Source: an uncultured Planctomycetales bacterium | Lineage (GTDB): Bacteria > Omnitrophota > Gorgyraeia > Zapsychrales > Zapsychraceae | Length of the DNA stretch: 64,000 nt | Assembly (NCBI GenBank): GCA_964535935.1 | Contig: CAZHWM010000025.1 | Coordinates: 6,159 to 70,158 of the forward strand | Direction: 5' to 3' | Translations under genes and position numbers: made by a program | The notes under the pieces: generated by a model | What the model was told of the DNA's origin: nothing | The model's input: only the letters and a program-made list of their open reading frames with translations | Database searches by the model: none | Shown here: piece after piece, positions 14,444-33,301 of the stretch | Position numbering within the stretch: the stretch's first letter is position 1 | Layout of the letters: the number at the start of each line of letters is the position of its first letter

Positions 14444-15385
14444 TTATGTATGCATGATATTTATACCAAGACTCTCCAAAAGACTAATGGTAGCCTCAAT
14501 CTCCATATTAAGGCGAGACTCTCTTGTCAATGTAGCTATGTGAGGAGTAAGAACCACATTATCTAATTCGCATAACGGTCCTCTATACGGCTCATCTAAA
14601 AACACATCCAAACCAGCACCACCAAGCTTTCCTTCTTTCAATGCCTCATAAATAGCGTTCTCATCAAGAAAACACCCACGTGAGGTATTTATTATAACAC
14701 ATCCTTCCTTCATCAGAGCTATCTGTTTTCTACCTAAAACAAACCTATTTCCTCCTGTATATGAAAGATGAATACTGAGTATATCAGATTCCCTTAGAAG
14801 TTCTTCTATGGAAACTATTCTTACATTATGTTCCTTTGCCCAAAAAACATCTGGACAGATATCTGAAGCTATAACCTCACAACCTATTGAATTTAAAATA
14901 CTTGCTACCCTCTTGCCTATCCTTCCCAGGCCTAATATTCCGACCTTTTTACCATAAAGTAATCCTCCTGCCGACTTATGCCATTTACCAGAACGAAGAG
15001 ATACCGTATGAAAAATAAGCCTTCTGAGAAGACAAAAAATCATAGCAATGGTAAGTTCAGCAACCGGCTGAATTACAACATCAGGCGTATTTCTTATAAC
15101 TATACCCTTAGCCCTTGCCGTTTCATAATCAATGTTATCTATTCCAACCCCACATCGACTTATGCACTCCAACTCTGTCAATGCATCTAACACATCCTTA
15201 TCATAAGGCTCAACACCTGCAATAATTCCATGACAACCACTGGCCATCTGAATAAGCTCTTCCTTAACAAGCCGCCTACCAAGATTATTAATAGTATATT
15301 CCACATTCTCTGATGTAAGCATATCCAGTGGCTCACTGCCATATTGGGCAAATGTTGATAATGCAACAAAAACCTTCTTTTTCAT
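14444..15385 (-). CDS. D-isomer-specific 2-hydroxyacid dehydrogenase (phosphoglycerate dehydrogenase-like)
   Basis: GKKVGILGLGRIGKRVA NAD motif, plus INTSRG and LTPHIA. The track ORF starts at GTG 15406 inside a repeat copy. ATG at 15385 (MKKKVFVAL) is the more plausible start. Confidence 0.86.
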   Translation of the reverse strand: MKKKVFVALSTFAQYGSEPLDMLTSENVEYTINNLGRRLVKEELIQMASGCHGIIAGVEPYDKDVLDALTELECISRCGVGIDNIDYETARAKGIVIRNTPDVVIQPVAELTIAMIFCLLRRLIFHTVSLRSGKWHKSAGGLLYGKKVGILGLGRIGKRVASILNSIGCEVIASDICPDVFWAKEHNVRIVSIEELLRESDILSIHLSYTGGNRFVLGRKQIALMKEGCVIINTSRGCFLDENAIYEALKEGKLGGAGLDVFLDEPYRGPLCELDNVVLTPHIATLTRESRLNMEIEATISLLESLGINIMHT

Positions 15386-15397
15386 ATCCAAAAACTC

Positions 15398-15464
15398 ATT
15401 CTGCACAATTTAACCTTGTTGATTTGTGCATTTTTCACTATTTAACAAGGTTAAATTGTGAAAT
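15398..15464. repeat. Palindromic intergenic repeat, copy R1 (right end degraded)
   Basis: attctgcacaatttaaccttgttgatttgtgcatttttcactatttaacaaggttaaattgtg-aaat. Same family as the copies at 17844, 35164, 39503, 43689, 50909 and 60066. Confidence 0.9.
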
Positions 15465-16239
15465 AAGAATTAAGTATCTGTTCATATAATTGTTTTTGTT
15501 TTACATTTTTTTTCAAAATACCTTCAATAATTTCTATATCATCCGGTCTATCAACACCTGCTGTATACTCCTTTGTAATTACAGCTGAAATAGTAAAACC
15601 ATGCTCTAATATCCTCAAAAAATCTATAGATTCTGCCTGCTCCAAAGGAGTAGGAGATAGGCTTGCAAATTTATGCAGAAAGTCTTTTCTAAATGCAGAA
15701 ATCCCTGTCTGACGATAAAACTGACATTTACCTTTAACACGCTGATATGGAATAGCAGCTCTTGAAAAATATAATATATGTTGTTTATTGTCTATAATAG
15801 TTTTTATAATATCAATATCATTAAGATCTGCCTCATTATGAATAACCGAAAGTAGGTTGGCACAATTAATACTATCGTCTTTTAACAAAGGAGCGACCAA
15901 TTCATCGATTATCTCTGGAAAAAATAACGGCTCATCTCCTTGCAGGATCACTATAATATCCGCATCCATCCCACATGCAGCTTCCTCCACTCTATCAGTA
16001 CACCTCTCATGTGTATCAGAAGTCATAACCGCTCTTCCGCCATAAGAAGAAACTGTCTCTATAATAACATTATCACAGCTGGCAACAATTACGTCATCAA
16101 CACAAGAACACAACATAGCTCGTCGCCTAACATGCTCTATCATAGGCAAATCAAGGATCTTCTCCAAGGGTTTACCCGGGAACCTGGAAGATCCCATTCG
16201 AGCAGGTATGACAGCTACTATTTTCTTATTTCTATTCAT
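15451..16239 (-). CDS. CMP-ulosonic acid synthase family cytidylyltransferase (KdsB-like)
   Basis: KIVAVIPARMGSSRFPGKPL..I...PMIEHV, VIVILQGDEP and FYRQTGISAF are KdsB/CTP_transf_3 signatures. ATG 16239 forms an ATGA overlap with the stop of the upstream SDR. The last codons and the stop lie in repeat R1. Confidence 0.85.
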   Translation of the reverse strand: MNRNKKIVAVIPARMGSSRFPGKPLEKILDLPMIEHVRRRAMLCSCVDDVIVASCDNVIIETVSSYGGRAVMTSDTHERCTDRVEEAACGMDADIIVILQGDEPLFFPEIIDELVAPLLKDDSINCANLLSVIHNEADLNDIDIIKTIIDNKQHILYFSRAAIPYQRVKGKCQFYRQTGISAFRKDFLHKFASLSPTPLEQAESIDFLRILEHGFTISAVITKEYTAGVDRPDDIEIIEGILKKNVKQKQLYEQILNSYFTI

Positions 16240-17003
16240 TGTGGTAAGACTCCGCAATCAACATTTATAGATTGACCTGTTATAGCAGAGGCCTTCTCAG
16301 AAGATAAAAACAGACAAACCTCAGCCACCTCTTCAGCAAGTGGAAGCCTCTGTAATGCAGACTGGCTTTTTGCAAACTTCTTCAAATATTTCATAACATC
16401 CATACCTGCTGCAGGTGATACCTTTTCTTTTAAGGCAGCAATAACCCCTTTGGTTTCCACATACACAGGACACACTGCATTGACACGAATCCCGTCATGA
16501 CCTAACTCCTTTGCCAATGCCTGTGTTAAACCAACTATACCAAATTTCGAGGCACAATATACAGAATTATTAGCACTTCCTCTTTTCCCTGCCAAACTAG
16601 AAATATTTATTATACATCCGCCTCTTTTTAAGTATCTTGCGGCTATCTTACATCCCCAAAAAGTTCCCTTGAGGTTCGTGTCTATCATCTCATCCCAAAA
16701 AGAGTCTGTCACATCTACTATAGGCATCCATTTTGAAAACCCTGCACAATTTACATAAATATCCAGCCGTCCTGTTTGCTTCAATGCACGTTCCGCCAAA
16801 CGGATATGCCCTGACTCACGGCGTACATCCATCTTTACAAAATACACTCCCTTACCTAATTCATTAGCTAAACCACTATCATTTCTAGAGCCAACAAAAA
16901 CATTCATATCGTTGTCATAAAATTTTTTTGCTATAGCAGCACCTATACCTTTAGTGCCACCAGTTATAACTACTGTTTTTTTACTTTCATTCACAACAAC
17001 CAC
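16236..17003 (-). CDS. Short-chain dehydrogenase/reductase (FabG-like)
   Basis: 255 aa. Has TGGTKGIG and a YCASK catalytic Y-x3-K. Confidence 0.88.
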   Translation of the reverse strand: MVVVNESKKTVVITGGTKGIGAAIAKKFYDNDMNVFVGSRNDSGLANELGKGVYFVKMDVRRESGHIRLAERALKQTGRLDIYVNCAGFSKWMPIVDVTDSFWDEMIDTNLKGTFWGCKIAARYLKRGGCIINISSLAGKRGSANNSVYCASKFGIVGLTQALAKELGHDGIRVNAVCPVYVETKGVIAALKEKVSPAAGMDVMKYLKKFAKSQSALQRLPLAEEVAEVCLFLSSEKASAITGQSINVDCGVLPQ

Positions 17004-17046
17004 CTCTTATTCTAAAAATTATATTATTTATTTTTAAGGCTCCACT

Positions 17047-17829
17047 CTATATCGTCATACATGAAAAACCCCCATCTACTGTTATCTCAGCTCCAGTAAC
17101 AAAACTAGCCGCATCTGAACAAAGCCATATAACCGCACCTATAAGCTCTTCTGGCCTACCATACCTTCTCATAGCAGTATGAGATAAAATTGCATCCTGT
17201 CTAGGTTTATCAATAAAATGCTTCATACTCCATTTTGTAGGGAAAAATCCTGGCCTTAAGGCATTAACCCGCACATTAAAAGGTGCCCATTCCCGTGCAA
17301 GATTCTGAGTCAAATTTTTAACCCCTGCCTTGGCAACAGAATAGCTGAATGCCTTAGACAAGGGAGGGCCTGCAGACGCAGATGACATATTAATAATAGC
17401 ACCTCTTTTTCTCTTTAACATATGAGAGCCAAAAACCTGACAACCTAACAAAGTAGCTGTTACATGAGAATCGATTATTGCATGCCATTCATCCAGAGTA
17501 ATATCTAACACAGGAGTAGGGGCATTAATCCCAGCACCATTTATCAAAATATCCACCCGATTAAAACATGACAATGTTTCTTTCAAAGCCTTCTCATGAT
17601 CACCTTTTTTAGTCGCATCTGCAACAACACTTAATACCTCTGCCCCCAAACGATGTATCTTCTTTTCCATCCGCTTTAACCCCTCCTTATTCTTATCCAT
17701 CAAAACCACACGTGCCCCTGCCTTTGCCAGTCCGACTGCCATATGCCCACACAAATAACCAGCAGAACCTACTACCACAGCAACCTTTTTCTCAACACTA
17801 AATAATTTAGACAAATAATCTCCTACCAT
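17047..17829 (-). CDS. Short-chain dehydrogenase/reductase
   Basis: 260 aa. SDR fold with NGAG, SSAS and YSVAK (Y-x3-K) motifs. Confidence 0.86.
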   Translation of the reverse strand: MVGDYLSKLFSVEKKVAVVVGSAGYLCGHMAVGLAKAGARVVLMDKNKEGLKRMEKKIHRLGAEVLSVVADATKKGDHEKALKETLSCFNRVDILINGAGINAPTPVLDITLDEWHAIIDSHVTATLLGCQVFGSHMLKRKRGAIINMSSASAGPPLSKAFSYSVAKAGVKNLTQNLAREWAPFNVRVNALRPGFFPTKWSMKHFIDKPRQDAILSHTAMRRYGRPEELIGAVIWLCSDAASFVTGAEITVDGGFSCMTI

Positions 17830-17843
17830 CTAATCCCCCTTCT

Positions 17844-17912
17844 ATTCTGCACTATTTAACCTTGTTGATTTGTGCATTTTTCACTATTTAACAAGGTTGA
17901 ATTGTGCAGAAT
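17844..17912. repeat. Palindromic intergenic repeat, copy R2
   Basis: 69 bp: attctgcactatttaaccttgttgatttgtgcatttttcactatttaacaaggttgaattgtgcagaat. TA dinucleotides sit at both junctions. Confidence 0.95.
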
Positions 17913-18536
17913 AAAACTTTTTATCTCAAAAAAGTCTCTAAAAATTGAGAAATCAACTATTCCAAAATCCTTGCCACTAAAACGACCCATAAAGTGGACT
18001 CCTGTCTGCATTGCTGATTTATAATCCTCAGGGCTATCTCCAATAAACACTGCCTGATCACTCCCTATACCCTCTCTTTTTAATATATCTCTTATTGCAT
18101 CTGGCTTCTTCCATGGAACTGGATACACATCTTTAAAGTATCCACTTAAGCCTCTTTCTTTTATAATTTTATCCAATTCATCTTTAGGATTTACAGAAAC
18201 CACATAAATAGGAACCCTTTTATAAAAATAATCAAGAAACTCTACACTGCCAGCCACAGAAGGACAATTAATAATATCATCCACAACTAACTGGGAATAC
18301 CTTTCACTTAAATCTTGTTCTATTTCTTCCGTGTAGTCAATACCTAATATATTCTCAAATATATATTTAAACTTCTCAAATCTGATTACTGCATTATGTG
18401 AGAGATGGTACTGCATAATTTCTTCTACATGCTCTGGATAGTCAGAAAAAATCTCCTTAAATGCCCTATCCTTAATACCTACTGATTCCACTAACACTCC
18501 ATCAAAATCTAATATAATTGTGCCAATACCCTTCAT
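17856..18536 (-). CDS. HAD-superfamily phosphatase
   Basis: 226 aa. TIILDFDGVLVES is HAD motif I (DxDGV) and FIGDSPEDY is motif IV. The last ~19 codons (LHNSTLLNSEKCTNQQG) and the stop are encoded by repeat R2. Confidence 0.8.
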   Translation of the reverse strand: MKGIGTIILDFDGVLVESVGIKDRAFKEIFSDYPEHVEEIMQYHLSHNAVIRFEKFKYIFENILGIDYTEEIEQDLSERYSQLVVDDIINCPSVAGSVEFLDYFYKRVPIYVVSVNPKDELDKIIKERGLSGYFKDVYPVPWKKPDAIRDILKREGIGSDQAVFIGDSPEDYKSAMQTGVHFMGRFSGKDFGIVDFSIFRDFFEIKSFILHNSTLLNSEKCTNQQG

Positions 18537-19333
18537 ACACCCCTCTCTCTCTTCCGTTTATGTATTAAATCATCCATAGCCTCTGACCATTTCCATAATA
18601 TAAATATATCTGAGGCAAGTACTACAAAATTAAACCCCTGATTGAATGCATTATCTATACTCTTACTATCAGGGACGACTATCTGCGTCCCACAAGATAC
18701 CTTTTTCTGAAGGCATATATCAAGAACATACCTACATGCATCTATAACCTTACTGTGGTTCAATTGTCCAGGGATGCCTAACGAACCTGAAAGATCATAT
18801 GGGCCAATCATAATCCCATCGACATTAGGACTTGAGACAATCTTTTCAATATTATCTACTGCATCTATGGTCTCAATCTGTGCGATAAGTATACACACTT
18901 TATTCCACTGCTGGGTATATTCCTCGAAATCAAATCCATACCCATGTGCCCTTGCAACACCATAACTACGGCTGCCTTCAGGAGGATATTTCATCCATGA
19001 AGAAATCTCATCAATCTGTTCTCTAGAAGAAATCATAGGGACAATCAACCCATCCGCTCCTGAATCTAATAACCTCTTTACTATCTCCATATCATGAGTA
19101 GGTATCCTTGGCAGACATAATCTACCCATTGCCTGAGCAGCAGCTATAATCCTCTGAGATTGTTCCTGATTTATAGTGCTGTGTTCTATATCAATACCTA
19201 TAAAATCGAAAGAGGCCTTGCAAAAAATCTCTGTTATGGAAGGATGGTAAAGGGATGTCCAAGCGGCAAATATGTCTTCCTTGTTTAAAAATCTCCTTTT
19301 CAGCAAGGCACGGCTCTTTAACAATTCCTTCAT
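18533..19333 (-). CDS. HpcH/HpaI family class II pyruvate aldolase
   Basis: 266 aa. FIGIDIEHS, LDSGADGLIVPMISS, YPPEGSRSYG, AQIETIDAV and MIGPYDLSGSLG are collinear with HpaI/HpcH aldolases. Confidence 0.82.
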   Translation of the reverse strand: MKELLKSRALLKRRFLNKEDIFAAWTSLYHPSITEIFCKASFDFIGIDIEHSTINQEQSQRIIAAAQAMGRLCLPRIPTHDMEIVKRLLDSGADGLIVPMISSREQIDEISSWMKYPPEGSRSYGVARAHGYGFDFEEYTQQWNKVCILIAQIETIDAVDNIEKIVSSPNVDGIMIGPYDLSGSLGIPGQLNHSKVIDACRYVLDICLQKKVSCGTQIVVPDSKSIDNAFNQGFNFVVLASDIFILWKWSEAMDDLIHKRKRERGV

Positions 19334-20016
19334 GAGGCACTCTCTCCCTTGGCTGCATCATCCAAAAACATCTTAACAGTCTCTTTAGAATAAGGGTGAA
19401 CTATCATCAACTCTATAAATTTAGGGACAACGGTCACAATATGGGCCCCTGCATTTAACCATTCAACAACATTCAAAACCTCCCGTGTTGATCCAACAAT
19501 AATCTTTGCCTTTAAATCGAATTCATCCAGTAGAGCTCTTATCTTCATAATCTCATCAACTGCATTATATCCCATATTATTAACCCTGCCGCCAAATATC
19601 GAGACATAACTTGCCCCTGCGAGTGCAGCAAGCAGACATTGTTGGGCACTCATCATTGCAGTAACATTGACACGAACATCATGCTTGGTCTCTAATTCAT
19701 GAACGACTTCTAAATTATGTAGTTCTCCTTGGGGACCATGTATGGTAATCTTAACATTGATGTTATCTGCCCAGCTTGCCATCTCTCTTGCCTGCTTTAA
19801 CATCTGTTGTTTTTCATTAGTCGTAACCTCCACTGATAATGGAAGCGGACTAATAAGCTTGGCAATCTCTATGGTAGATTTCTTTATCTCTTTCATGCCT
19901 CCCTTGATACCTGATTTGAGCAAAATAGTAGGATTAGTAGTCACCCCTCGTATAATCCCCATATGCAGATATTTTCTAACTTCTTCAATATCACCTGTAT
20001 CTAAAAAAATAGCCAT
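19330..20016 (-). CDS. Transaldolase family protein, fructose-6-phosphate aldolase/TalC subtype
   Basis: 228 aa. MAIFLDTGDIEEV....GVTTNPTIL, the NVKIT Schiff-base Lys context, and VSIFGGRV. Confidence 0.88.
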   Translation of the reverse strand: MAIFLDTGDIEEVRKYLHMGIIRGVTTNPTILLKSGIKGGMKEIKKSTIEIAKLISPLPLSVEVTTNEKQQMLKQAREMASWADNINVKITIHGPQGELHNLEVVHELETKHDVRVNVTAMMSAQQCLLAALAGASYVSIFGGRVNNMGYNAVDEIMKIRALLDEFDLKAKIIVGSTREVLNVVEWLNAGAHIVTVVPKFIELMIVHPYSKETVKMFLDDAAKGESAS

Positions 20017-20104
20017 CTCTTCCTCCTGAATTTATGCTATAAATTATATTGTTAACTAAGTCTAACTACCTGCTGAACAATAGCAAAACATTCTACCTCA
20101 ATAT

Positions 20105-20716
20105 TTACTCACTACCATCTTCAGAAACAGACTCCCATTTATTCTTCATCTGCATAATCCTAAAATCAGATATTATCAGATGCCAGATAACTGCCTGAAA
20201 AGACTCTGCATGCGGAGTAATAGTATCATCTGCCACAGTAGGGACTATTACACATGCATCTGCAACCTTTGCTGTATATCCTCCATCTCTACCTACTATT
20301 CCCAAAATCCTTGCTCTCTGCTGTTTTGCATACTCAAGAGCATATACGAGATTAGCACTAATATTCTTCTCTTTATTACCCCCCCCTACAGAAAAGATAA
20401 ACACCCCGTCTCTATCACACAGTTTAGACTGCTTTAGCCACTCAACAAATACCGTATGCCATCCCTCATCATTTGTACGTGCAGTGAGTTCTGCCACATT
20501 ATCCACTGGAGTATATGCCTCAAATCCTCCTATCTTACGAAAATCATTAACAGCATGAGAACAATTGGCTGCACTTCCTCCAACACCTAAGAAAAAGATC
20601 CTTCCACCTTCATTTCGAACATCTATCAGCAAATAAATCATCTTCTCTATCTGAGATTTATCTATTTTTTCTATAATACTTACCGTTTCTTTCAAATAAC
20701 GCTCAACATAAGACAT
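20105..20716 (-). CDS. SIS-domain sugar-phosphate isomerase (GmhA/phosphoheptose isomerase-like)
   Basis: 203 aa. GGRIFFLGVGGSAANCSHAVNDF, and size and architecture like GmhA. Confidence 0.78.
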   Translation of the reverse strand: MSYVERYLKETVSIIEKIDKSQIEKMIYLLIDVRNEGGRIFFLGVGGSAANCSHAVNDFRKIGGFEAYTPVDNVAELTARTNDEGWHTVFVEWLKQSKLCDRDGVFIFSVGGGNKEKNISANLVYALEYAKQQRARILGIVGRDGGYTAKVADACVIVPTVADDTITPHAESFQAVIWHLIISDFRIMQMKNKWESVSEDGSE

Positions 20717-20726
20717 ATAAGGCTCC

Positions 20727-21740
20727 TTATCTTTTTCTTAATAAAATCCTTCCATAGGAACTTAGTAGATTCGTCTGTAAGAACTCCTGAAATGCATCTC
20801 TTACATTTCTATCTTTAGACTCTATAATACTTCTTATAAACCTTGATATCTTGATATCAGGATTATGCTGAATAGCATTTAAAACAATATCTACATCCAA
20901 AATCCCTGGAGTACTAAACTCCAGACAATCAAAATTAAACCTATCTGCAATTATCTTGATTGCCTCCATTGAAAATACATTTAGCCTATCTGGTGGATAC
21001 AGATTTTCCGCATGTTCCCAAAGCTCCAATATATCAAAACCTGATGACAAAATAGCAGTAATAAAACAAAGCCCATCTTGTTTTAACATACGAGTTATCT
21101 TTGCAAAAAAAGCATCAATATCCGAGACATGCCCCAACACATCAAACAGACTGACAACATCTACCTCATTATCAATCTGACCATTAGCAAGATCTTTATC
21201 AAATAAAACAAAAATGTTATCTTTCTCAAATGAAGATTGCCTTACATACGGAGAAAAAAGGGTCTTTCTTGCAAATAAATCTGTCTTTGCTATCTCATCA
21301 ATATACCCATAATGACTGGTATTAACATCTACCCAATGCCTTGCTCCTGGCAAATATTCTATAGTAGAATCGATTACCCAATCAACCCTTGGCTTTATAA
21401 TCTTTTCTTTACGCTTTTTATCTGTTGAAGTGGATAATTTCTCCTGCCAAAACTTCCGGGCTGAGGAATTAAGATAATAATCATTCAATACTGAATCATC
21501 AGGCCTAGGAGATATATAAAGTGTCTTACAATGCATACATTCTTTATACTGCATCCCGAATCGTGAAAAGGCGAATTGTGTCAATTGCGAATTACATGCA
21601 GGACAAGGGATATCCCGCAACTCATTGTTCGCCAAAAATTTACCAATATCCTTTCTAGTAAGGCTTATATATTCCTCTAATAAATCAGCAGGTTTAAAAT
21701 CCAGCTCATTAAACTCGTCAAAAACAACAATGTTTTTCAT
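20727..21740 (-). CDS. Methyltransferase-like protein with N-terminal Cys4 zinc ribbon (tentative)
   Basis: 337 aa. Has CPACNS...CMHCKT. VDVVSLFDVLGHVSDIDAFFAKITRMLKQDGLCFIT resembles class I MTase motifs II-III. The GxGxG SAM motif is not obvious. Confidence 0.5.
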   Translation of the reverse strand: MKNIVVFDEFNELDFKPADLLEEYISLTRKDIGKFLANNELRDIPCPACNSQLTQFAFSRFGMQYKECMHCKTLYISPRPDDSVLNDYYLNSSARKFWQEKLSTSTDKKRKEKIIKPRVDWVIDSTIEYLPGARHWVDVNTSHYGYIDEIAKTDLFARKTLFSPYVRQSSFEKDNIFVLFDKDLANGQIDNEVDVVSLFDVLGHVSDIDAFFAKITRMLKQDGLCFITAILSSGFDILELWEHAENLYPPDRLNVFSMEAIKIIADRFNFDCLEFSTPGILDVDIVLNAIQHNPDIKISRFIRSIIESKDRNVRDAFQEFLQTNLLSSYGRILLRKR

Positions 21741-22767
21741 CTCCCACCTCTTCTGTTATCCCTCCTTCTGCATCATTATATGCCTGTTCGATAATCTCCA
21801 TTACCCTTAAGGCATCAAAAGAACTGCTCATAGTAACAGGCTTATCCTCTCTTATACATCTTACAAACTCCGACACCTCTAACTCCCAAGACCTGTCTTT
21901 ATCAAAGTATGTAATCTGCTCTGATGGATTTCCTAGTGCCTCTGCCTCATCTTCAAACTGCCGTTTGCCTACCACCAGCCTTTCTCTTCCATAACTGCCT
22001 GTCTTAGAAAGCAACCCCTCTATAACCATATAGCCTTCTTCCAAAATAATATCCAAACGAAATGTATGCTTCCATAATGTAGCTGACGAATGCAGGCTTG
22101 CCATTTGGCCATCACTATTGCGTAGTATTACAAATGCATTATCTTCTATATCAAATTTCCAAAATAAATTATTTTTAAAACACTTAACATCCTGAAAATC
22201 ACTGCAAAAGTACCTGAATAAATCAAGCATATGCACCCCTTGATCAAGGAGTATCCCCCCACCTGAAACCTCTTTTTTGTTTCTCCATGATTTATGGAAG
22301 CCAGAACCACCTGATTTTCCATAAACTCCTCGCAAAGCAATAATCTTTCCTAGACGGCCACTGTCAACTATAAGTTTTGCCTTAATTATCCCGGGATGAT
22401 AACGATGGTTAAAACCAAACATCAATTTAACACCGTCTTTTTCATGCTGGCGCATATATTTTATATCATCCACGTTTCTACCAGGGGGCTTCTCGCAAAA
22501 TACATGTTTACCTGCATCCATTGCCTTAACAGATATCTCAGGTGAAAAACAATTTGGAGTGCATACAAATACTATGTCGATATCCTTATCCAGCATATCT
22601 TCAAAACAAGAAAATACCTCAACATCCTGTAATCTATCACGAACACTCTTATCTATATCACATACTCCCACCAAGCGCAATCCTTCAACAGAGTCTACAA
22701 TCCGTTTACGGATCTCTCCCATATATCCAAAACCAACTATACCGCAATTTAATATTTTATCCATCAA
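21718..22767 (-). CDS. Gfo/Idh/MocA family NAD(P)-dependent sugar oxidoreductase
   Basis: 349 aa. LNCGIVGFGYMG, VFVCTPN, CEKP and FGFNHRYHP. Confidence 0.86.
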   Translation of the reverse strand: MMDKILNCGIVGFGYMGEIRKRIVDSVEGLRLVGVCDIDKSVRDRLQDVEVFSCFEDMLDKDIDIVFVCTPNCFSPEISVKAMDAGKHVFCEKPPGRNVDDIKYMRQHEKDGVKLMFGFNHRYHPGIIKAKLIVDSGRLGKIIALRGVYGKSGGSGFHKSWRNKKEVSGGGILLDQGVHMLDLFRYFCSDFQDVKCFKNNLFWKFDIEDNAFVILRNSDGQMASLHSSATLWKHTFRLDIILEEGYMVIEGLLSKTGSYGRERLVVGKRQFEDEAEALGNPSEQITYFDKDRSWELEVSEFVRCIREDKPVTMSSSFDALRVMEIIEQAYNDAEGGITEEVGDEKHCCF

Positions 22768-24081
22768 TCACTCCAATGCCCATTGATAAAAAGGTACAAT
22801 ATCTATCATAAATCCTTCTTCATCAATCGTTTTGCTATCTCCCTCGGCAACAACAATCATAGCCTCTTTAAGCCCAAAATACCTCATAGCCTCCATCAGA
22901 GAAGATACCTCTCTTAAAAACGTCTGTTTTTCTGTTATATTATAACAAACATTTATCAATTGTCTTATTTTATGTCCTTCTTTTATAACGAAATCTACCT
23001 CTTTCCTTTCGTGAAAATAATAAATCTCTCTTTTCTGTCTTCTCAAATGATGAAACACTGCGTTCTCTAACAGTTTTCCTTTATCATTTGAAAATTTAAA
23101 CGCTATAGCATTATGCATACCATTATCTATAAAATATAGCTTACGATCCGTCCGCATCTGATCTTTAAGTGAATATGAAAACCGCACAAGAAAATCAATC
23201 AAAAAGGCATCGGACAGATAATGGGAAAATCTATGAACAGTATCCAAAGACAAAGAAAAATCTACCACTTTTTTCACTTTATTAAAAGTATATTTAGATG
23301 TAAAATTTGTTCCATAAAATAATGCCAAATCCTGCAATTTCCCCGACTCTTTTATTTTATATCTATTAACAATATCTTTAGTTAAGATATCATTGAAATA
23401 CTGCGACAATAATTCCTTACGCAATAATTCATCCTGTGTAAGGACAACCTTGGGAAACCCCCCTATTTGAAGATATTTTACAGCAAACTCCTCCAATATA
23501 TGTCTATTCTTCACCATCCAAAACCTGTCAGAGGATATCTCCATGCCATTAAAAATCAAAAATTCCCTAAACGAAAGAGGGCTAATAAATACCTCCAAAT
23601 GCCTGCCGGTAAGCACAGATGCAAACTCCGATCCTAAGAGTCCGGCATTTGAACCTGTTACAAATATCTTTACAGCCTCTTTTCTATCATATTTCGCCCT
23701 TACCCAATGCTCCCATCCTGATATCTTCTGTACCTCATCCAATACCAAATACACCTTACCCTTAGGCTGCAAATAATCAAGATAAGCATTCCATATATTA
23801 TCCAATAATTCTATATTCAAAGAGCTATAAAACTTAGGATCTTCAAAATTAACATAAATAGTATTAACCTTTGGTACTCCCTGCCTAATTAACTCAGACA
23901 AAACCTGCAAGGATATCGTACTCTTACCCGAACGCCTAACACCTGTTAATGCTACAATCTCATCTGTCTTGAGATACCGTTGTATACAATCTAAATAATC
24001 ATGGCGTAGAATACCTGTATCTATACTACGCTCCCAAAAATTCCATAAAAGAAGGGTTGCTATGATCTCATCTTTTTGCAT
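22768..24081 (-). CDS. AAA-family ATPase with DUF4143-type C-terminal domain
   Basis: LTGVRRSGKSTISLQ is Walker A and YLVLDEVQ is Walker B. The C-terminal region is typical of AAA_14/DUF4143 proteins. The track start is GTG 24090. ATG 24081 is preceded by GGTGGA. Confidence 0.84.
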   Translation of the reverse strand: MQKDEIIATLLLWNFWERSIDTGILRHDYLDCIQRYLKTDEIVALTGVRRSGKSTISLQVLSELIRQGVPKVNTIYVNFEDPKFYSSLNIELLDNIWNAYLDYLQPKGKVYLVLDEVQKISGWEHWVRAKYDRKEAVKIFVTGSNAGLLGSEFASVLTGRHLEVFISPLSFREFLIFNGMEISSDRFWMVKNRHILEEFAVKYLQIGGFPKVVLTQDELLRKELLSQYFNDILTKDIVNRYKIKESGKLQDLALFYGTNFTSKYTFNKVKKVVDFSLSLDTVHRFSHYLSDAFLIDFLVRFSYSLKDQMRTDRKLYFIDNGMHNAIAFKFSNDKGKLLENAVFHHLRRQKREIYYFHERKEVDFVIKEGHKIRQLINVCYNITEKQTFLREVSSLMEAMRYFGLKEAMIVVAEGDSKTIDEEGFMIDIVPFYQWALE

Positions 24082-24090
24082 TTTATCCAC

Positions 24091-24195: not shown

Positions 24196-26013
24196 CTAAA
24201 ACAGAGACAATGTTTCGTCATTAACAGGATAAAAATACCTGCGTATATACTGTTTGGCCTTTTGCTGTTGATATATAAAGTCTTTATCTTCAATACGATA
24301 AATCTCTTTAATAACATTATCAAGGTCATCATAGGCAGTCACGCTCCATTTCAAATAACTGCATTCAAACAATGGGTCATAACTCAATATAGAACCAATA
24401 TCATAATGTATTACAGGCCTTCCCATACTTAAGGACTCAATAACAACAGTGCTCCCCCAGTAGATAACAACATCCGCCCATTTTATATCTTCTTTCAAAG
24501 ACCTTTTCTCCGAAAGAATAAAATTAGAAATATTGTCTATATTTATATTATAATGACGACTAAAGTATTCCCAACCAAGCACAGGGTGCGTGCGTATCAT
24601 AACCTCATAGCTATCCTTACCTGCCAGCTGTGATATAACATATTTTACCATCGCACCTGCAGCAGGTACCCCCTCTAATGCTACTAATATCTTCCCCTCT
24701 TTCTTTCTTGATAAAGATAAATTTATTTTAAAAAGATACTCATGCCTAAGAGCACATGCAACCTTAATCATACCTTTATGATAACTACCATATCTTTCCA
24801 TTATCTGTTTTGGAATCTCACCAACAGTAAATATCCTGTCCGGCATAGGAGAAAGCTCTCTCTCTCTACTATCCGGGAACATATTCAACGAGGCCTGTGG
24901 GACTACGGTATGCTGAAACCCTATAATATCTGTAGCAGAACTACTCTCTTTAACTGAAGAAACACACATCCTCTCCCATGGATTATTCTCATAAGTATAT
25001 AAAAAAGTCTTTGCCTGCACACAGGCAAACAGCCTTTTTACTGCACAGTAATGAAGCAATTGATATAACTGTACACCATTAAAGGTCCTTTTCAGTTCAT
25101 TATTTATAATATCAAATACATCCTTTCCATAAAATAATATATCTTTCGGTAGCTTTATTTTAAAAAATAATATCTGTTTTACTGCGGTCAATATATCAAA
25201 AAAAGATATAAAACAATCTATCGGTATAATAAAATAAGTACTGTTCCTTATCTTATGGATACAGTGACGATAACCTCCCAGTATGTTAGCTAGGATAATC
25301 ACATCATCCCGGGCATTCAAAAAATCCACAAGTCTGCCAAAAAATATATCATAATAACTGTTATTCTCACCAAAAGAATGATTATAAATAAAACTCTTAA
25401 CTATATAATAGGGCTTATCAGTAACAAGCCTTTTATGAATAATCCTACCCAATCGCAGCCTTGCATAAACCGAACGTATATAAATAACTCCTGCATGATA
25501 AAATAGACCGAGTATCTTTTTTATTCTGGCAAAGACAATCCTAAAATTATTTACAAAATCTCTGCTGATAAATTCACACTTAACACCATAAAATGAAATC
25601 GCTTTATTTAATGATTGCAATATAAGATAAGAAGGGCTGAAAATAACGAGGTTGTCTATATCATCCTGCCTTAGCATATACAAAATAGTAATAAACTGAT
25701 GAATTAACGACGGAAGAGTTGAAGTAAATCTATTCTTTGATGCAATATCTGTTGCCCACCATAGACGGCTATTATTTTCCTTTGATAATGAGCCAATAAG
25801 AGTTATATATTCAGCTAAAAATCTTTCCCTTTGTTCTGAAGATGGCCTTGCAGGGCAGATCAAATCCATATTATAATCTCTAATCAATCTCTGTAGTTGT
25901 TCAGATATATCTGTAAATGCAAGAAATTTATTCCTGCAAGAAGTATTAAGCAATCCTCTTTTAAACAGGCCTACCATCTCCCGTGTATTATAAACGACAT
26001 AAATTGCTTTCAT
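24196..26013 (-). CDS. Uncharacterised large protein, possible GT-B-like surface-carbohydrate biosynthesis enzyme
   Basis: 605 aa. The long intact ORF is tightly packed in the operon. The C-terminal WADVVIYWGSTVVIESLSMGRPVIHYD resembles the nucleotide-sugar-binding end of GT-B, capsule (KpsS/KpsC) or TagF-type enzymes. No firm family assignment. Confidence 0.4.
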   Translation of the reverse strand: MKAIYVVYNTREMVGLFKRGLLNTSCRNKFLAFTDISEQLQRLIRDYNMDLICPARPSSEQRERFLAEYITLIGSLSKENNSRLWWATDIASKNRFTSTLPSLIHQFITILYMLRQDDIDNLVIFSPSYLILQSLNKAISFYGVKCEFISRDFVNNFRIVFARIKKILGLFYHAGVIYIRSVYARLRLGRIIHKRLVTDKPYYIVKSFIYNHSFGENNSYYDIFFGRLVDFLNARDDVIILANILGGYRHCIHKIRNSTYFIIPIDCFISFFDILTAVKQILFFKIKLPKDILFYGKDVFDIINNELKRTFNGVQLYQLLHYCAVKRLFACVQAKTFLYTYENNPWERMCVSSVKESSSATDIIGFQHTVVPQASLNMFPDSRERELSPMPDRIFTVGEIPKQIMERYGSYHKGMIKVACALRHEYLFKINLSLSRKKEGKILVALEGVPAAGAMVKYVISQLAGKDSYEVMIRTHPVLGWEYFSRHYNINIDNISNFILSEKRSLKEDIKWADVVIYWGSTVVIESLSMGRPVIHYDIGSILSYDPLFECSYLKWSVTAYDDLDNVIKEIYRIEDKDFIYQQQKAKQYIRRYFYPVNDETLSLF

Positions 26014-26016: not shown

Positions 26017-26712
26017 TTATAATAATCCCTCTTCTGCAAAACTAAAATAATCATTATCTGCAATGATTATATGGTCAAGAACATTTATATGCAGAATCTT
26101 ACCTGCAACGGTCAAATCTTTCGTAAATTTTTTATCTTCTGCACTAGGCAATTTGACTGCACTTGGATGATTATGGGCACATATAATCGATACAGCATAC
26201 CTCTGAAGCGCTGAATGCATTATCTCTCTTATTATCGGCGTGGCAAAATTAACTGTACCTGTGGCTGCATCAGCAATATCAATAATCTTATTATCACTAT
26301 CAAGAAAAACGACCTTAAAAACCTCTTTCTTTAAATCGCGCATCTGGGGCATTAATATCTCCACAACATCTCTAACAGATTTTATTTTATATCTATTCTC
26401 GCGAAGCTCATCCTCCCTAAACCTTCTGCCTATCTCCAAAGCAGCCTTTATCTGAGCAACCTTGGCCTTACCAAGCCCTTTAAACTCATCCCAATCCCTT
26501 AAATCTGTTTGCATCATATTTCTAAATGTCTTGAACTTAACAAGTATACTCCTGGCTAGATCTATAGCACTACAACCACAGGCGCCTGTCCGTAACAAAA
26601 TAGCTAACAATTCAGAATTACTAAGGGTATCTGCCCCTCTTTTCAATAACTTCTCTCTTGGTCTATCTTCAACAGGCCAAGACTTGATTGCGGATGTATA
26701 TTTACTTTTCAT
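26017..26712 (-). CDS. radC: RadC-like JAB/JAMM domain protein (UPF0758)
   Basis: 231 aa. IKSWPVEDRPREKLLKRGADTLSNSELLAILLRTG (HhH region) and an intact JAMM motif, HNHPSAVKLPSAED (HxHx7SxxD). Confidence 0.88.
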   Translation of the reverse strand: MKSKYTSAIKSWPVEDRPREKLLKRGADTLSNSELLAILLRTGACGCSAIDLARSILVKFKTFRNMMQTDLRDWDEFKGLGKAKVAQIKAALEIGRRFREDELRENRYKIKSVRDVVEILMPQMRDLKKEVFKVVFLDSDNKIIDIADAATGTVNFATPIIREIMHSALQRYAVSIICAHNHPSAVKLPSAEDKKFTKDLTVAGKILHINVLDHIIIADNDYFSFAEEGLL

Positions 26713-26718: not shown

Positions 26719-28827
26719 TTAATCTATATTTGTTAATTCAAAAATCTTATCCTTCCCCCATTTTTCAGAATAACATTGGGCAGCATCTGCTAAAACCTTA
26801 TCTTTTGGCAATCCTTTCTTAAGGCCTTCTATAATCCAAAAAAGATATGTCCCCATTCTCTCTGCTGCCTTACCATCACGGAACGGATCAAGTTCATCTA
26901 TTAATTCAGACCAATCGCCAAACCCCTTGATACTCCCAGGCTGTCTCCAATGTTGCTGGCATGCCTCCCATAAACTATCCCAATCATGAAATACCACCCT
27001 TCCCTTACCCAACCTGTTCAATATCCCTCTAGGCCATCCTTCTCTGTCTAATAAAAGCGTAGGAGTTCCAGTAAGTGCTGACTCAACTCCTGCACTCCCA
27101 CTGCATAAATGCCCGTGTACAGCAATATCAGAAGCCAATGCTGCAACAGATGGAGGATATACCCCCTGTATAGTCCCTCCTGAAAACATATAACAACGTC
27201 CTGTAGTGATGGCCTTATCAAGCAACTCAGCAACACCTCCCAACCTATCACGCAATGTCCTTGGAACCTTTGGTTTTAATATAAGACCAAAGTCCTTATC
27301 ATCAATAACCTTCTGCAAAAGGAAAGCATAATTATGCCTCATAAACTCATGGCCTGTATGCCAGCGAGGATCAGGCATAGAATTCTCATCAAAAAAAGAA
27401 ATAATCCTTGTGGCCCCGTTTTCCAATAACTGCTGACGCAGCTTATCCGCGATATGTTTAACAAACCTAAACCTAAAATCACCTATATAACCTGTTATCA
27501 CATAATAATTAACAAAAGAACCTGATGCAATCTCTGCATCCATACTTATTTTTGAGAAACCAAAAGCCAAATCACAACCAAGAGTAAGTTCAGGTGAAGG
27601 AAATTCCTCAAATGAACGCTGATAAATAACAGAAACGCCTCCTACCTGTCTTAACGCCTCTGAGATAACACAATGACGACTCCCACAATTAAACCAGGAA
27701 ACAAACACTCGTGTATTTGTCTTTAAAAAAAATTCTCTCCAATAATCAACATCCCTATAAAAAGTTACGATCTGTTTACGTAGCCATCTTGAATTGTTAC
27801 CATATTTTGTATATTCATCATACTCTTCCCGTAGATTCTTATTCCCCATGTAAATAAAAACAGGGACCTCTCTTACCTTTGACGCCTTAGGATTAAGCAC
27901 TACAACAGGTATCTTATGTCTCTTTAATTCATCCAACCCCTCCAAATCTAACGGTGAGGCAGGCAGGTTAAAAGACACAATAACATCCCTATTACAAAGA
28001 CGTGAATTTTGTAAAAAAAACAGGTCTGAAAAGAATTCAGGTCTATCTAAATTAAGATGACCATAGTATTCTGCCATAACCTTAGGACTACTTTTATCTC
28101 CAAAACAAATAGAGGTAAATCTGCTCTCCTTTACACGGCAATACTGAGACACCAACCCTTTTATTCCATACAACAGATAAATATAATACCATGCACGTAG
28201 CCTATGTTCCCCTACTAAAGATGCAACAAAATTTCTGATATTGACTCTATGGAAAAAAGAAAAGATAACCCTTACATCATACTTTGCAGCATATGAAACA
28301 AGCTCCTTTCTCCACAACCTTTTATCTGCAAAAAATATCTTCTCTGCAGTTTTTCCAAAAACCTTCTTTTCCGCCCAACATGCTACATGAACAAGAAATA
28401 TCATCCTCCAAACAGTACCAGCACTATCCCACGTGAACGCCACAGCCTGCTTTTTTAAATATATCTTCAAAAAAGGATTGTCAACAGCTATAGCTTGTAA
28501 CAACGGCTTAAACTCAGACCTATCCAAAATATCTTCCTGCACTTCAATTAAATCCTCTCCTGCAATTCGCAGCCTTATCAATCTACCAACATCATCACGA
28601 ATATCCACCAACCTAAATGAAAGCAATCTTATTTCAAGGTTTATAAGGCTTCCCATAACACGAGTAAAAAAAAGGCCAATAGATGTGGTATCAATATAAT
28701 AGAGGACATCTTTTCTAAAAAAACCAGCTTTAAATTTTAAGATTAAAATATGAGGGAAAATACAGGATATCCATATAGGGAAGGTCAAACGTTCTACAAA
28801 AAATAAAAAAGGCTTCTTGTCTCCCAT
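26719..28827 (-). CDS. Uncharacterised large protein, possible GT-B-like polysaccharide biosynthesis enzyme
   Basis: 702 aa. The C-terminal DIAVHGHLCSGSAGVESALTGTPTLLLD resembles GT-B or capsule-synthesis C-terminal motifs. Otherwise no recognisable family. Confidence 0.4.
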   Translation of the reverse strand: MGDKKPFLFFVERLTFPIWISCIFPHILILKFKAGFFRKDVLYYIDTTSIGLFFTRVMGSLINLEIRLLSFRLVDIRDDVGRLIRLRIAGEDLIEVQEDILDRSEFKPLLQAIAVDNPFLKIYLKKQAVAFTWDSAGTVWRMIFLVHVACWAEKKVFGKTAEKIFFADKRLWRKELVSYAAKYDVRVIFSFFHRVNIRNFVASLVGEHRLRAWYYIYLLYGIKGLVSQYCRVKESRFTSICFGDKSSPKVMAEYYGHLNLDRPEFFSDLFFLQNSRLCNRDVIVSFNLPASPLDLEGLDELKRHKIPVVVLNPKASKVREVPVFIYMGNKNLREEYDEYTKYGNNSRWLRKQIVTFYRDVDYWREFFLKTNTRVFVSWFNCGSRHCVISEALRQVGGVSVIYQRSFEEFPSPELTLGCDLAFGFSKISMDAEIASGSFVNYYVITGYIGDFRFRFVKHIADKLRQQLLENGATRIISFFDENSMPDPRWHTGHEFMRHNYAFLLQKVIDDKDFGLILKPKVPRTLRDRLGGVAELLDKAITTGRCYMFSGGTIQGVYPPSVAALASDIAVHGHLCSGSAGVESALTGTPTLLLDREGWPRGILNRLGKGRVVFHDWDSLWEACQQHWRQPGSIKGFGDWSELIDELDPFRDGKAAERMGTYLFWIIEGLKKGLPKDKVLADAAQCYSEKWGKDKIFELTNID

Positions 28828-28856: not shown

Positions 28857-29612
28857 CTATTCTGTACTCAACCGTGCCAATGCACCACCATCTGCTATAA
28901 GAACCTGCCCTGTAACAAACGAAGAACTGTCATTATCTGCCAAAAAATATATTACCTTAGCTATCTCTTCTGGGGTCCCCACTCTTCCAATAATATGTTT
29001 TTTACCTATACTTACCAACTGTTCAGATATACTATCCCCACATATACCAGTCCGCCTTAATCCCTCCTCAAGCATTGGTGTATTTACCGCACCTGGAACA
29101 ACTGCATTAACTCGCACCCCTACAGTGCCGAACTCAATAGCCATATTCCTTGTCAATGCTATCAAACCAGCCTTGCTGGCAGCATAAGAAGATATATCTT
29201 TAGATGATGCATATGCATGGACAGAAGATACATTGACAATACTTCCCTTAGCCCGTGCCAAAAGCCTAAATAAGCCCTTGGCAAGCAGAAACGGTGCCTC
29301 AAGGTTTACAGCAAATACAGACCGCCATTCTTCTAACTCCATATCCAACAAGGACTTACATACCTGATAAGCTGCATTGTTAACCAATATATCAAGTCTC
29401 TGATGAGAAGAGGAAATTGTAGAAATCAAATCTTCTATCTCTTCTCTCTTAGAAAGGTCTACTGAATAATATGCAGACATACATTCAGGAGCAGTCATCT
29501 TTCTTCGCCCAACGCCAATTACCTTCCACCCATTCCTAAAAAAGACATCGCATGTCTTATATCCTATCCCACTTGAAGCACCTGTTATAATAACAACTCT
29601 CTCAGTACTCAT
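28857..29612 (-). CDS. Short-chain dehydrogenase/reductase
   Basis: 251 aa. ITGASSGIG, NNAA and YAASK (Y-x3-K). Confidence 0.88.
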   Translation of the reverse strand: MSTERVVIITGASSGIGYKTCDVFFRNGWKVIGVGRRKMTAPECMSAYYSVDLSKREEIEDLISTISSSHQRLDILVNNAAYQVCKSLLDMELEEWRSVFAVNLEAPFLLAKGLFRLLARAKGSIVNVSSVHAYASSKDISSYAASKAGLIALTRNMAIEFGTVGVRVNAVVPGAVNTPMLEEGLRRTGICGDSISEQLVSIGKKHIIGRVGTPEEIAKVIYFLADNDSSSFVTGQVLIADGGALARLSTE

Positions 29613-32663: not shown

Positions 32664-33301
32664 TGAGTAAATAATATAGCCCGTGTAAGAGAGGCCTCTA
32701 TACCGTTAAATTTTATTGGAAGGCATACCAATTTATACCAACCTTGCTCCACTGAAGACAAATCAAGCGTCTCTAAAACAACCACCTCGGCCCCAAGAAG
32801 TATATCATGCACCCTATCCTGACCTGTGAAGCGTTGTATGGAAAGATAATCAATACCTACAAGCCGTATACCATTATCAACAATCCACTGAGCAGCATCC
32901 TCTGTCAAGGCAACAAAATCCTCATAAAAAGAATTATCTCCATCCTTCCATAGAGAAGAATTATCCGTCTTAAACAAAAGTCGTTTTGCTCCTGAAAATA
33001 AATGTGCATTGTTTTGCAAGATCTCTGCTGAAATTTCTTTTACCTTAGGCAGATACAAAACATATACTTCCCCTATCAAAATATCAAGGTCAAGGGCTTC
33101 TACTGATTTTCCACCCTTAATATAATGAGACGGAGCATCAATATGCGTACCAGTATGAACACTTCCACTAAAAAGCGTATCATTGACTCCCTCACCTGCA
33201 TCCATATCTTTTATAGCAGAAAACCTTACAGATGGAGACTCTGGCCACACTACAAGAGACTCATCTATTCCAACAGATATATCAATAATTCTTTTAGCCA
33301 T
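32660..33301 (-). CDS. Cyclase family protein (PF04199-type; kynurenine formamidase-like fold)
   Basis: 213 aa. Exact HxGTHxDxPxH motif: HTGTHIDAPSH. Confidence 0.85.
   Translation of the reverse strand: MAKRIIDISVGIDESLVVWPESPSVRFSAIKDMDAGEGVNDTLFSGSVHTGTHIDAPSHYIKGGKSVEALDLDILIGEVYVLYLPKVKEISAEILQNNAHLFSGAKRLLFKTDNSSLWKDGDNSFYEDFVALTEDAAQWIVDNGIRLVGIDYLSIQRFTGQDRVHDILLGAEVVVLETLDLSSVEQGWYKLVCLPIKFNGIEASLTRAILFTQ

Follow-up and report, generated by a model that had tools for sequence, protein, structure and literature searches.

We analysed a 64,000-nucleotide stretch of DNA from an uncultured Planctomycetales bacterium (GTDB phylum Omnitrophota; assembly GCA_964535935.1, contig CAZHWM010000025.1, positions 6,159 to 70,158), referred to throughout as the window. 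It carries a widespread cassette of sugar genes for which we found no published description, of either cassette or pathway, in full-text literature searches. Judging by its protein families, the cassette probably builds an unusual acidic sugar resembling 3-deoxy-D-manno-octulosonate (Kdo), using a pyruvate-type aldolase and activation with cytidine monophosphate (CMP). Our model is that the aldolase, HpcH, makes, and can re-make, the C3–C4 bond of an ulosonic acid other than Kdo, and that ten cassette genes together with an upstream gene, U605, constitute a self-contained CMP-ulosonate pathway serving a surface polysaccharide; taking this model as a whole, we place our confidence at the halfway mark. 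Below, KdsB* denotes the cassette's KdsB-like cytidylyltransferase, U605 and U702 the 605- and 702-residue proteins encoded upstream, and L followed by a number a locus in a relative.

The window is contig C25 of a 1.45-Mb genome bin (30 contigs, 87% complete). All genes of the region lie on the minus strand, in a large surface-polysaccharide locus with GT2, GT1 and WecG transferases, a WbaP-like initiating transferase, Wzy_C proteins and a GDP-mannose dehydratase. A reading made from the letters alone (the sequence-only reading) had described a block of nine genes here, and Pfam and NCBIfam profile searches of the window's proteins recovered all nine open reading frames (ORFs) where it had drawn them and with the families it had named. 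Four of the junctions among the nine overlap, and the remaining ones leave 10-88 nt. The limits of the block were drawn too tightly: it comprises at least ten genes, the addition being 2HADH (14444-15406).

At the centre of the model stands HpcH (18533-19333), which profile searches assign to the class II metal-dependent 2-oxoacid aldolases (HpcH_HpaI, 107 bits) and which matches the solved structures 3qz6, GarL (1dxe), HpaI and YfaU, as well as the hydroxyketoacid aldolase 6r62 of the same family. The sequence-only reading had called it an aldolase, and every class II catalytic residue is indeed present: H51, R76, E154 and D180 align with H50, R75, E153 and D179 of GarL, which are the catalytic histidine, the pyruvate-binding arginine and the metal ligands, and this set is invariant in 23 homologs. 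More than 3000 homologs exist, many at ~60% identity, and in NCBIfam the protein reaches 138 bits against an equivalog cut-off of 369. A search for fused (Rosetta-stone) forms of HpcH gave none of use, and a search of the ESM Atlas gave generic HpcH clusters only. The only chemistry open to a class II aldolase on a 2-ulosonic acid is the breaking and re-forming of the C3–C4 bond.

Within the window's cassette, HpcH is the sole candidate for forming that bond. Searching the window by tblastn with the genome's own KdsA revealed no KdsA-like gene, and there is no NeuB in the window either. The absence of a KdsA/NeuB-type synthase, on which the sequence-only reading relied, is thus real for the cassette and the window; genome-wide it holds for NeuB, for which the bin was searched without a find, but not for KdsA. 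A canonical rfaE(domain I)-kdsB-kdsA-kdsD-kdsC operon, all of whose members score as true equivalogs, lies on contig C12, and its KdsA is the only one in the genome. Since the cassette has no synthase and the genome's KdsA sits in this lipopolysaccharide (LPS) operon, we propose that HpcH is the bond-forming enzyme here. Elsewhere the genome has two GmhA-like genes (193 and 115 bits, against 48 bits for the cassette's SIS protein) and, on contig C16, a housekeeping transaldolase of 381 aa. Because the genome holds this canonical Kdo operon as well as housekeeping GmhA and transaldolase genes, the cassette's KdsB-like, SIS and TAL proteins are, on sequence comparison, additional diverged paralogs; its HAD-IA phosphatase is no ortholog of KdsC, nor is HpcH one of KdsA. 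The host, a diderm, already produces the Kdo and heptose of its LPS, and the cassette is a separate pathway.

The cytidylyltransferase KdsB* (15451-16257; CTP_transf_3, 148 bits) is a KdsB/KpsU-like paralog of the CMP-ulosonate synthetases. Its NCBIfam scores, 279 bits for PRK13368 and 171 for TIGR00466 (kdsB), exceed both cut-offs, and it is 35-41% identical to the genome's own KdsB. In a PDB sequence search its best match is KpsU, a capsule enzyme of E. coli (1gq9, 164 bits, aligned over residues 12-250). Equivalents of the CMP-Kdo synthetase catalytic set, Arg10, Lys19, Asp98 (in QGDEP) and Asp225 (in GVD), are retained, and the motifs LQGDEP and GVDRP are conserved. These scores allow a plainer explanation, in which KdsB* is a second CMP-Kdo synthetase for a Kdo capsule, fed by the housekeeping KdsA, and the other genes serve something else. 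Spare kpsF/kpsU copies are present in E. coli capsule loci, and the full Kdo pathway of this genome could supply the Kdo. The sugar site speaks against it. The C5 hydroxyl of Kdo receives hydrogen bonds from Gln98 and Tyr185 in E. coli KdsB, where His181 lies within the sugar site (PMC12199768). KdsB* retains the Gln98 equivalent, and has Gln in place of His181 and Ser in place of Tyr185: its motif here reads YRQTGISAF, with DFLR as the second motif, as against LKHVGIYAY and EQLR in KpsU and FKHLGIYAY and EQLR in the genome's own KdsB on C12, both of which keep the two residues. The His-to-Gln change and the loss of Tyr are common to all copies examined from the ten-gene arrangement (the long form, described below) and to every more distant relative from our metagenome search. 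With two Kdo-contact residues lost, KdsB* is likely no second CMP-Kdo synthetase; its residues suggest a competent CMP-ulosonate synthetase, probably for a sugar other than Kdo, and the departure from Kdo-specific enzymes at the Kdo contacts supports the sequence-only reading.

To follow the cassette across genomes, a pattern search built on the HpcH alignment, with one genome kept per species, yielded 80 loci, with which the window's proteins were compared by tblastn; a KdsB*-centred metagenome search yielded a further 80, giving 160 loci together. Both sets are biased by the query used, many of their contigs are short, and the taxonomic labels of metagenome-assembled genomes are as deposited. 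The long form has GFO, MT, SIS, TAL, HpcH, HAD, SDR1, SDR2, KdsB* and 2HADH in this order at 50-75% protein identity (GFO 57-72%, SIS 62-75%, SDR2 50-68% and, short forms included, SDR1 54-77%). The collinear block occurs in more than ten bacterial phyla and one methanogen, its carriers including Omnitrophota, Planctomycetota, Thermodesulfobacteriota, Chloroflexota, Elusimicrobiota, Aminicenantota, Bdellovibrionota and Pseudomonadota (Kiloniella laminariae, Halopseudomonas aestusnigri), an Uhrbacteria bin of the candidate phyla radiation (CPR) and a Methanomicrobiaceae archaeon. For partner counts we took the 52 HpcH-centred loci whose flanks each extend at least 7 kb and scored genes within 9 kb of HpcH: KdsB-like and SDR1 genes were found in 43 each, GFO in 40, SIS and MT in 38 each, HAD in 37, U605 in 36, and 2HADH and TAL in 34 each, mostly in the same order. 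This association is far beyond chance. The linkage between HpcH and the transaldolase, on which the sequence-only reading had staked its case, persists in relatives, and in the converse direction HpcH is present in 12 of the 14 fully flanked KdsB*-centred loci.

Collinearity across phyla also supports the earlier claim of one conserved pathway cassette within a polysaccharide locus, as opposed to a chance neighbourhood of unrelated sugar genes in a large glycan island. Glycan islands do mix many pathways, two unrelated genes (for a RadC-like protein and an AAA_14 ATPase) lie inside this very block, and gene content differs between versions of the cassette. Yet a haphazard assembly would hardly keep ten genes in one order across more than ten phyla and dozens of genomes, with overlapping junctions and with sub-blocks that travel together when the order changes, and we give this explanation almost no credence.

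The same surveys bear on who might supply KdsB*. KdsA was found in none of the 80 KdsB*-centred loci, and the long form is present in the archaeon and in the CPR bacterium, neither of which has any DAHP_synth_1 homolog. A KdsB* gene that is linked to HpcH across phyla, in a cassette that occurs in genomes without any KdsA homolog, is hard to reconcile with a Kdo capsule, and together with the altered sugar site this makes us regard the spare-synthetase explanation as quite improbable. NeuB, too, was considered as a hidden supplier and rejected, as it is absent from the window's own genome and only 11 of the 160 loci have it within ~10 kb of their anchor gene. Separately, the HpcH proteins of Kiloniella laminariae (L035, an alphaproteobacterium) and Halopseudomonas aestusnigri (L037, a gammaproteobacterium) are nearly identical, with branch lengths of 0.019 and 0 in the HpcH tree, which points to the cassette having passed horizontally, and very recently, from one marine bacterium to another.

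The remaining enzymes fit a pathway of this kind to different degrees. TAL (19330-20016; TAL_FSA, 133 bits) is a short-type transaldolase. The sequence-only reading had typed it as FSA/TalC; that it is a transaldolase stands, the type resembling fructose-6-phosphate aldolase (FSA) does not. Its best PDB matches, with 104-112 bits, are the transaldolases of Thermoplasma (3s0c), Bacillus (3r8r) and Thermotoga (1vpx), FSA structures reaching 46-69 bits. The conserved residues of TAL are Asp6, a Glu (svEv), the Schiff-base Lys (nvKi) and a Phe (siFggR). FSA has Gln and Tyr at the positions where transaldolases carry the catalytic Glu and Phe, and by this pair TAL is classed as a transaldolase, which would move a three-carbon dihydroxyacetone unit onto an aldose phosphate. 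SIS (20105-20716), a single-domain protein of 203 aa (SIS_2, 32 bits), is the third and a diverged GmhA-like gene of the genome, and only weakly GmhA-like: it reaches 48 bits on gmhA TIGR00441, whose cut-off is 209, and 41 bits on its best PDB match, C. jejuni GmhA (1tk9). The catalytic and zinc residues of E. coli GmhA we take to be H61, E65, Q172 and H180; in a weak alignment the first His is kept, Glu65 lies opposite an Asp, and towards the C-terminus there is a plausible, though unaligned, Gln/His region. HAD (17856-18536; HAD_2/Hydrolase) is a phosphatase of type IA, unlike KdsC, with the motifs DxDG and GDSxxD (GDSPED), and its gene overlaps the HpcH stop by 4 nt.

Four oxidoreductases and a methyltransferase-like protein complete the set. 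GFO (21718-22767) is a Gfo/Idh/MocA NAD(P) oxidoreductase, with Pfam matches to GFO_IDH_MocA and C-terminal domains; its best NCBIfam matches, inositol 2-dehydrogenase, levoglucosan dehydrogenase, UDP-GlcNAc 3-dehydrogenase and xylose 1-dehydrogenase, all fall below cut-off, and it is predicted to oxidise a sugar hydroxyl or the C1 of an aldose. SDR1 (17047-17829) and SDR2 (16236-17003) are classical short-chain dehydrogenases/reductases (adh_short_C2, 177 and 190 bits), the former nearest to mannonate, gluconate-5 and KduD-type sugar-acid dehydrogenases (PRK08277, 236 bits, sub-cut-off). The D-isomer-specific 2-hydroxyacid dehydrogenase 2HADH (2-Hacid_dh_C, 172 bits) matches PGDH, glyoxylate reductase and GhrB best in NCBIfam, again below cut-off. 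It follows KdsB* in most long-form loci and is the most constant partner of the KdsB* family, being present in 13 of the 14 fully flanked KdsB*-centred loci. MT-like (20727-21740) was described by the sequence-only reading as a zinc-ribbon methyltransferase-like protein. The ribbon (CPAC...CMHC, a CxxC...CxxC at residues 45-72) is there and is kept in the orthologs displayed, and a class I methyltransferase fold is indicated by a Methyltransf_23 match, over residues 171-273 in the C-terminal half only. The glycine-rich motif I for S-adenosylmethionine is, by contrast, absent from the protein and from every ortholog aligned, the region reading VD(V/I)NT.Q.Y. Because this replaces the glycine-rich loop, methyl transfer is uncertain, and MT-like may be no methyltransferase at all.

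From these families and catalytic residues, their conservation and linkage, and the non-Kdo signature of the cytidylyltransferase, we infer every substrate, the order of steps and the product as follows. The extra transaldolase and the GmhA-like isomerase would first convert central sugar phosphates to an aldose phosphate of seven or more carbons. HpcH would then join a 2-oxoacid, pyruvate or possibly hydroxypyruvate supplied by 2HADH, to the aldehyde, forming the C3–C4 bond of a 2-ulosonate phosphate, from which the adjacent HAD enzyme would strip the phosphate. SDR1, SDR2, GFO and MT-like would tailor the sugar, KdsB* would form the CMP-sugar, and U605 would transfer it. Being reversible, HpcH could also re-make the C3–C4 bond of an ulosonate made by a phosphoenolpyruvate (PEP)-dependent synthase, and so reset the stereochemistry at C4.

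This last property matters in view of the sister versions of the cassette. A short form, found in ten of the 80 loci of the HpcH search, occurs in Bacteroidota, Alphaproteobacteria (Tabrizicola sp. TH137 is among the carriers) and one genome labelled Deltaproteobacteria. It retains HpcH-SDR1-SDR2-KdsB*, is without GFO, MT, SIS, TAL, HAD and 2HADH, and has a 294-aa DAHP_synth_1 protein and a small CBS protein encoded directly upstream of HpcH, with a U605-like gene and sometimes KdsC after KdsB*. The DAHP_synth_1 protein is a KdsA paralog (in L061, L062, L065, L067, L073, L078, L081, L085, L086 and L089), 70-94% identical across phyla (Bacteroidota and Alphaproteobacteria), and scores ~300-318 bits against 357-386 for the housekeeping KdsA of its hosts. 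Its gene lies ~1.4 kb upstream of HpcH in most short forms, further away in L081 and L067, and in L086 it is split into pieces. An invariant KDCRS loop stands where KdsA has KANR(S/T), its loop for arabinose-5-phosphate, a difference suggesting that the paralog is a PEP-dependent synthase acting on another aldose phosphate. The two front ends, that is, the long-form set and the KdsA paralog, never occur together in the 160 loci. In a tree of 118 HpcH sequences the short form is a single clade (SH-aLRT, the Shimodaira-Hasegawa-like approximate likelihood ratio test, 100) nested among long forms by nodes of 80-93, the tree being a quick maximum-likelihood one with midpoint rooting.

Further versions came from the KdsB*-centred metagenome search, in which the same gene set also appears in a different order with the HpcH-HAD adjacency and sub-blocks kept. 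One compact version consists of HpcH, KdsB*, 2HADH, an extended SDR and HAD, and another of HpcH, KdsB*, an FkbM methyltransferase, GFO, an inositol monophosphatase (IMPase)-family phosphatase, SIS and 2HADH; the IMPase-family enzyme takes the place of HAD in L155. As the HpcH-HAD adjacency survives shuffling and HAD is once replaced by a phosphatase of another family, we take the phosphatase step to belong to the pathway. The compact loci L165-L167 have HpcH, KdsB*, 2HADH and HAD without GFO or SIS, and some metagenome loci have a cyclase-KdsB*-2HADH form without HpcH. Finally, in L126 and L128 (271-6738) HpcH-KdsB* shares one gene run with NeuB, a NeuC-like epimerase, an acetyltransferase, a DegT aminotransferase and a PglF-like dehydratase, by gene content a complete legionaminic-type pathway, and a second, NeuA-like cytidylyltransferase lies nearby; such a run could be a route to a C4-epimeric nonulosonic acid.

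These arrangements lend no support to the simplest form of the sequence-only reading, in which HpcH merely fills the slot of KdsA, since HpcH is kept beside a KdsA paralog in the short form and beside a NeuB pathway in two loci. The HpcH-KdsB* pair persists with or without a PEP-dependent synthase, and because HpcH is kept where such a synthase is present, the aldolase must do something that the synthase does not. We propose that it stays beside the KdsA paralog or NeuB because it can re-make the C3–C4 bond.

Several observations weigh against our model. The short form, with its KdsA paralog directly upstream of HpcH, nests within the long-form HpcH clade, and two loci join HpcH-KdsB* to a full NeuB pathway; since a synthase of one kind or the other accompanies HpcH in these sister versions, it may be that HpcH forms the ulosonate in no version at all. 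NeuB is present both in the archaeon and in the CPR genome without KdsA. Thermodynamically, aldol condensation from pyruvate has less drive than synthesis from PEP, as with NanA-type aldolases. The match of SIS to GmhA is weak, the roles of GFO, MT-like and 2HADH are unexplained by the model, and GFO and 2HADH together could form a 2-keto acid without any aldolase.

The last point can be developed into an alternative pathway, in which TAL adds three carbons, SIS converts the ketose to an aldose, GFO oxidises C1 to give an aldonic acid, 2HADH oxidises the C2 hydroxyl to a 2-keto group and dephosphorylation falls to HAD. This would yield a 3-hydroxy (Ko-like) 2-ulosonic acid, and HpcH and the SDRs would merely tailor it, for example by retro-aldol/aldol epimerisation and by oxidation or reduction. 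The short form lends itself to this explanation, for it is one clade nested in the long-form HpcH tree that swaps exactly GFO, MT, SIS, TAL, HAD and 2HADH for the KdsA paralog (with the CBS protein and sometimes KdsC), and the two sets exclude each other throughout; the nesting nodes, on the other hand, have SH-aLRT values of just 80-93. The pairing of 2HADH with the KdsB* family holds even without HpcH, including in a second module of the window (28857-31248), and the 2HADH family includes 2-ketoaldonate reductases such as GhrB (159 bits, sub-cut-off), but oxidation of a 2-hydroxy to a 2-keto acid is thermodynamically uphill. That constant pairing would equally fit a variant of our own model in which 2HADH supplies the hydroxypyruvate donor. 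Nor do the other enzymes fall neatly into place: the partial matches of GFO include C2 and C3 dehydrogenases besides a C1 dehydrogenase, the compact L165-L167 have neither GFO nor SIS, and so close a pairing of HpcH with HAD fits an aldolase that yields a phosphate ester. A 6-phosphogluconolactonase gene beside the compact L167 was considered in this connection and dropped, being conserved in no other locus. Overall we consider the oxidative order of events unlikely.

Returning to the aldolase model, an extension of it would make the product a CMP-activated ulosonic acid of at least ten carbons (a C7-C8 aldose phosphate plus the three carbons added by the aldolase), with HpcH and KdsB* forming a portable module for making or re-making C3–C4 bonds that could also give 4-epimers of Kdo- and legionaminic-type sugars. 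We offer this tentatively and consider it rather unlikely. CMP-linked C10 alpha-keto acids without assigned genes have been detected by mass spectrometry in Magnetospirillum (preprint 10.64898/2026.04.20.719630); these are diamino sugars with no tie to the cassette, and they show that higher-carbon CMP-ulosonic acids exist. Should the extension be true, both the product of at least ten carbons and the portable module would be new enzymology for envelope sugars.

We consider that two upstream proteins, U605 and U702, belong with the ten-gene cassette. U605 (24196-26013) has neither a Pfam match nor a PDB sequence match, and its AlphaFold model (mean confidence, pLDDT, 91) comprises an N-terminal domain of ~200 aa followed by a GT-B glycosyltransferase fold at residues 198-605, with Z scores of 11-13 against many GT-B enzymes. 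The CMP-Kdo domain of WaaA is matched at Z 12.0 (4bfc) and Z 11.1 (2xci), level with UDP-, GDP- and TDP-dependent enzymes. Conserved in U605 are Q367-H368 and R474/H476-P477, of which the invariant H476-P477 may resemble the HP motif of sialyltransferases. In many loci a homolog is encoded immediately upstream of GFO, in short forms downstream of the cytidylyltransferase, and on its modelled fold U605 is a candidate dedicated glycosyltransferase for the cassette sugar. U702 (26719-28827) recurs upstream of the cassette in relatives, with homologs at 35-47% identity upstream of U605 or GFO in L016, L018, L043, L049, L057, L079, L082 and L087. It has no Pfam match, its AlphaFold model is poor (pLDDT 61), Foldseek gave nothing reliable, and profile-profile comparison found no relation to U605; it is possibly a second transferase.

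Two further genes in this part of the window lie outside the cassette. One encodes an ATPase (22768-24090; AAA_14 and DUF4143) and sits between U605 and GFO, abutting the GFO start with zero gap, and the other a RadC-like JAB-domain protein (26017-26712; RadC and UPF0758_N) between U702 and U605. In relatives U605 directly adjoins GFO, and U702 and U605 are adjacent (for example in L016 and L018). Both have the appearance of mobile or defence-associated genes that entered the sugar operon later.

A 63-nt palindromic repeat resembling repetitive extragenic palindromic (REP) elements occurs in two copies, 97% identical, at the KdsB*/2HADH junction (15398-15460) and the HAD/SDR1 junction (17844-17906). 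The copies bracket SDR1-SDR2-KdsB* and run into the ends of the HAD and KdsB* ORFs. We considered whether they are recombination scars of a mobile SDR1-SDR2-KdsB* sub-block and rejected this, as the element is scattered through the window: its core gives 12 matches (~8 sites) against 0 expected, in intergenic spots, with further copies near 35170-35226, 39509-39565, 43727-43751, 50915-50971, 60072-60096 and 63285-63309.

Upstream of the cassette the window holds a second CMP-sugar module (28857-34272), with a GT2 transferase, a cyclase-family protein, a B12-radical SAM protein, a PseF-like cytidylyltransferase, a 2-hydroxyacid dehydrogenase and an SDR. Its dehydrogenase is 55-61% identical to those of the metagenome loci with cyclase, KdsB-like and 2HADH genes that have no aldolase or synthase nearby. 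In this module and in those loci, a cytidylyltransferase and a 2HADH may be a functional pair by themselves.

Among the known systems, the CMP-Kdo pathway, which has the capsule copies KpsF/KpsU, follows the same logic as the cassette, as there too a sugar-phosphate isomerase, a C–C bond-forming enzyme, a phosphatase and a CTP_transf_3 cytidylyltransferase lead to a CMP-linked 2-ulosonic acid. The cassette differs in having no PEP-dependent synthase, in an isomerase that is a single-domain GmhA-like SIS protein rather than a KdsD-type SIS protein with two CBS domains, in a phosphatase of the HAD-IA rather than the HAD-IIIA (KdsC) type, the true KdsD and KdsC being encoded on C12, and in a cytidylyltransferase lacking the His and Tyr that contact Kdo. 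Additional components are a transaldolase, a class II aldolase, four oxidoreductases and the MT-like protein.

The parallel with the lincosamide octose route, drawn by the sequence-only reading, seems reasonable to us; both TAL and SIS are surplus, diverged paralogs in a genome with its own housekeeping copies. The lincosamide route uses the LmbR transaldolase, LmbN isomerase, LmbP kinase, LmbK phosphatase and LmbO guanylyltransferase, and the shared theme, compared here at the level of the described enzyme functions, is that a transaldolase, a GmhA-like isomerase and a HAD phosphatase give a higher-carbon aldose phosphate. Neither a kinase nor an NTP_transferase family protein is found among the ten cassette genes or their direct neighbours; activation instead falls to a KdsB-like CMP enzyme, which needs a 2-keto acid, and an aldolase is present.

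HpaI, GarL, YfaU/RhmA and hydroxyketoacid aldolase share their fold and their His/Arg/Glu/Asp set with the cassette's HpcH. Class II pyruvate aldolases of this kind join pyruvate or hydroxypyruvate to aldehydes to give 4-hydroxy-2-oxoacids, and the HpcH/HpaI members known to us are catabolic or biocatalytic, none acting in nucleotide-sugar biosynthesis. The cassette clade, by contrast, lies in glycan loci beside a cytidylyltransferase and scores far below the equivalog cut-offs.

With the nonulosonic acid pathways (NeuB/LegI/PseI with NeuA/LegF/PseF) the cassette has in common a CMP-activated alpha-keto acid sugar destined for surface glycans; unlike them it lacks NeuB, an aminotransferase and an acetyltransferase, and has a KdsB-like cytidylyltransferase in place of a NeuA-like one. 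Named species among the carriers of the cassette include Kiloniella laminariae, Halopseudomonas aestusnigri and, for the short form, Tabrizicola sp. TH137. To our knowledge, PEP-dependent synthases of the KdsA/NeuB type make all CMP-activated ulosonic acids described so far (Kdo, Kdn, sialic, legionaminic and pseudaminic acids). If our model is right, the route through a metal-dependent 2-oxoacid aldolase would represent a new biosynthetic logic and probably a new family of acidic surface sugars, together with a new specificity class of cytidylyltransferase and a new family of glycosyltransferase.

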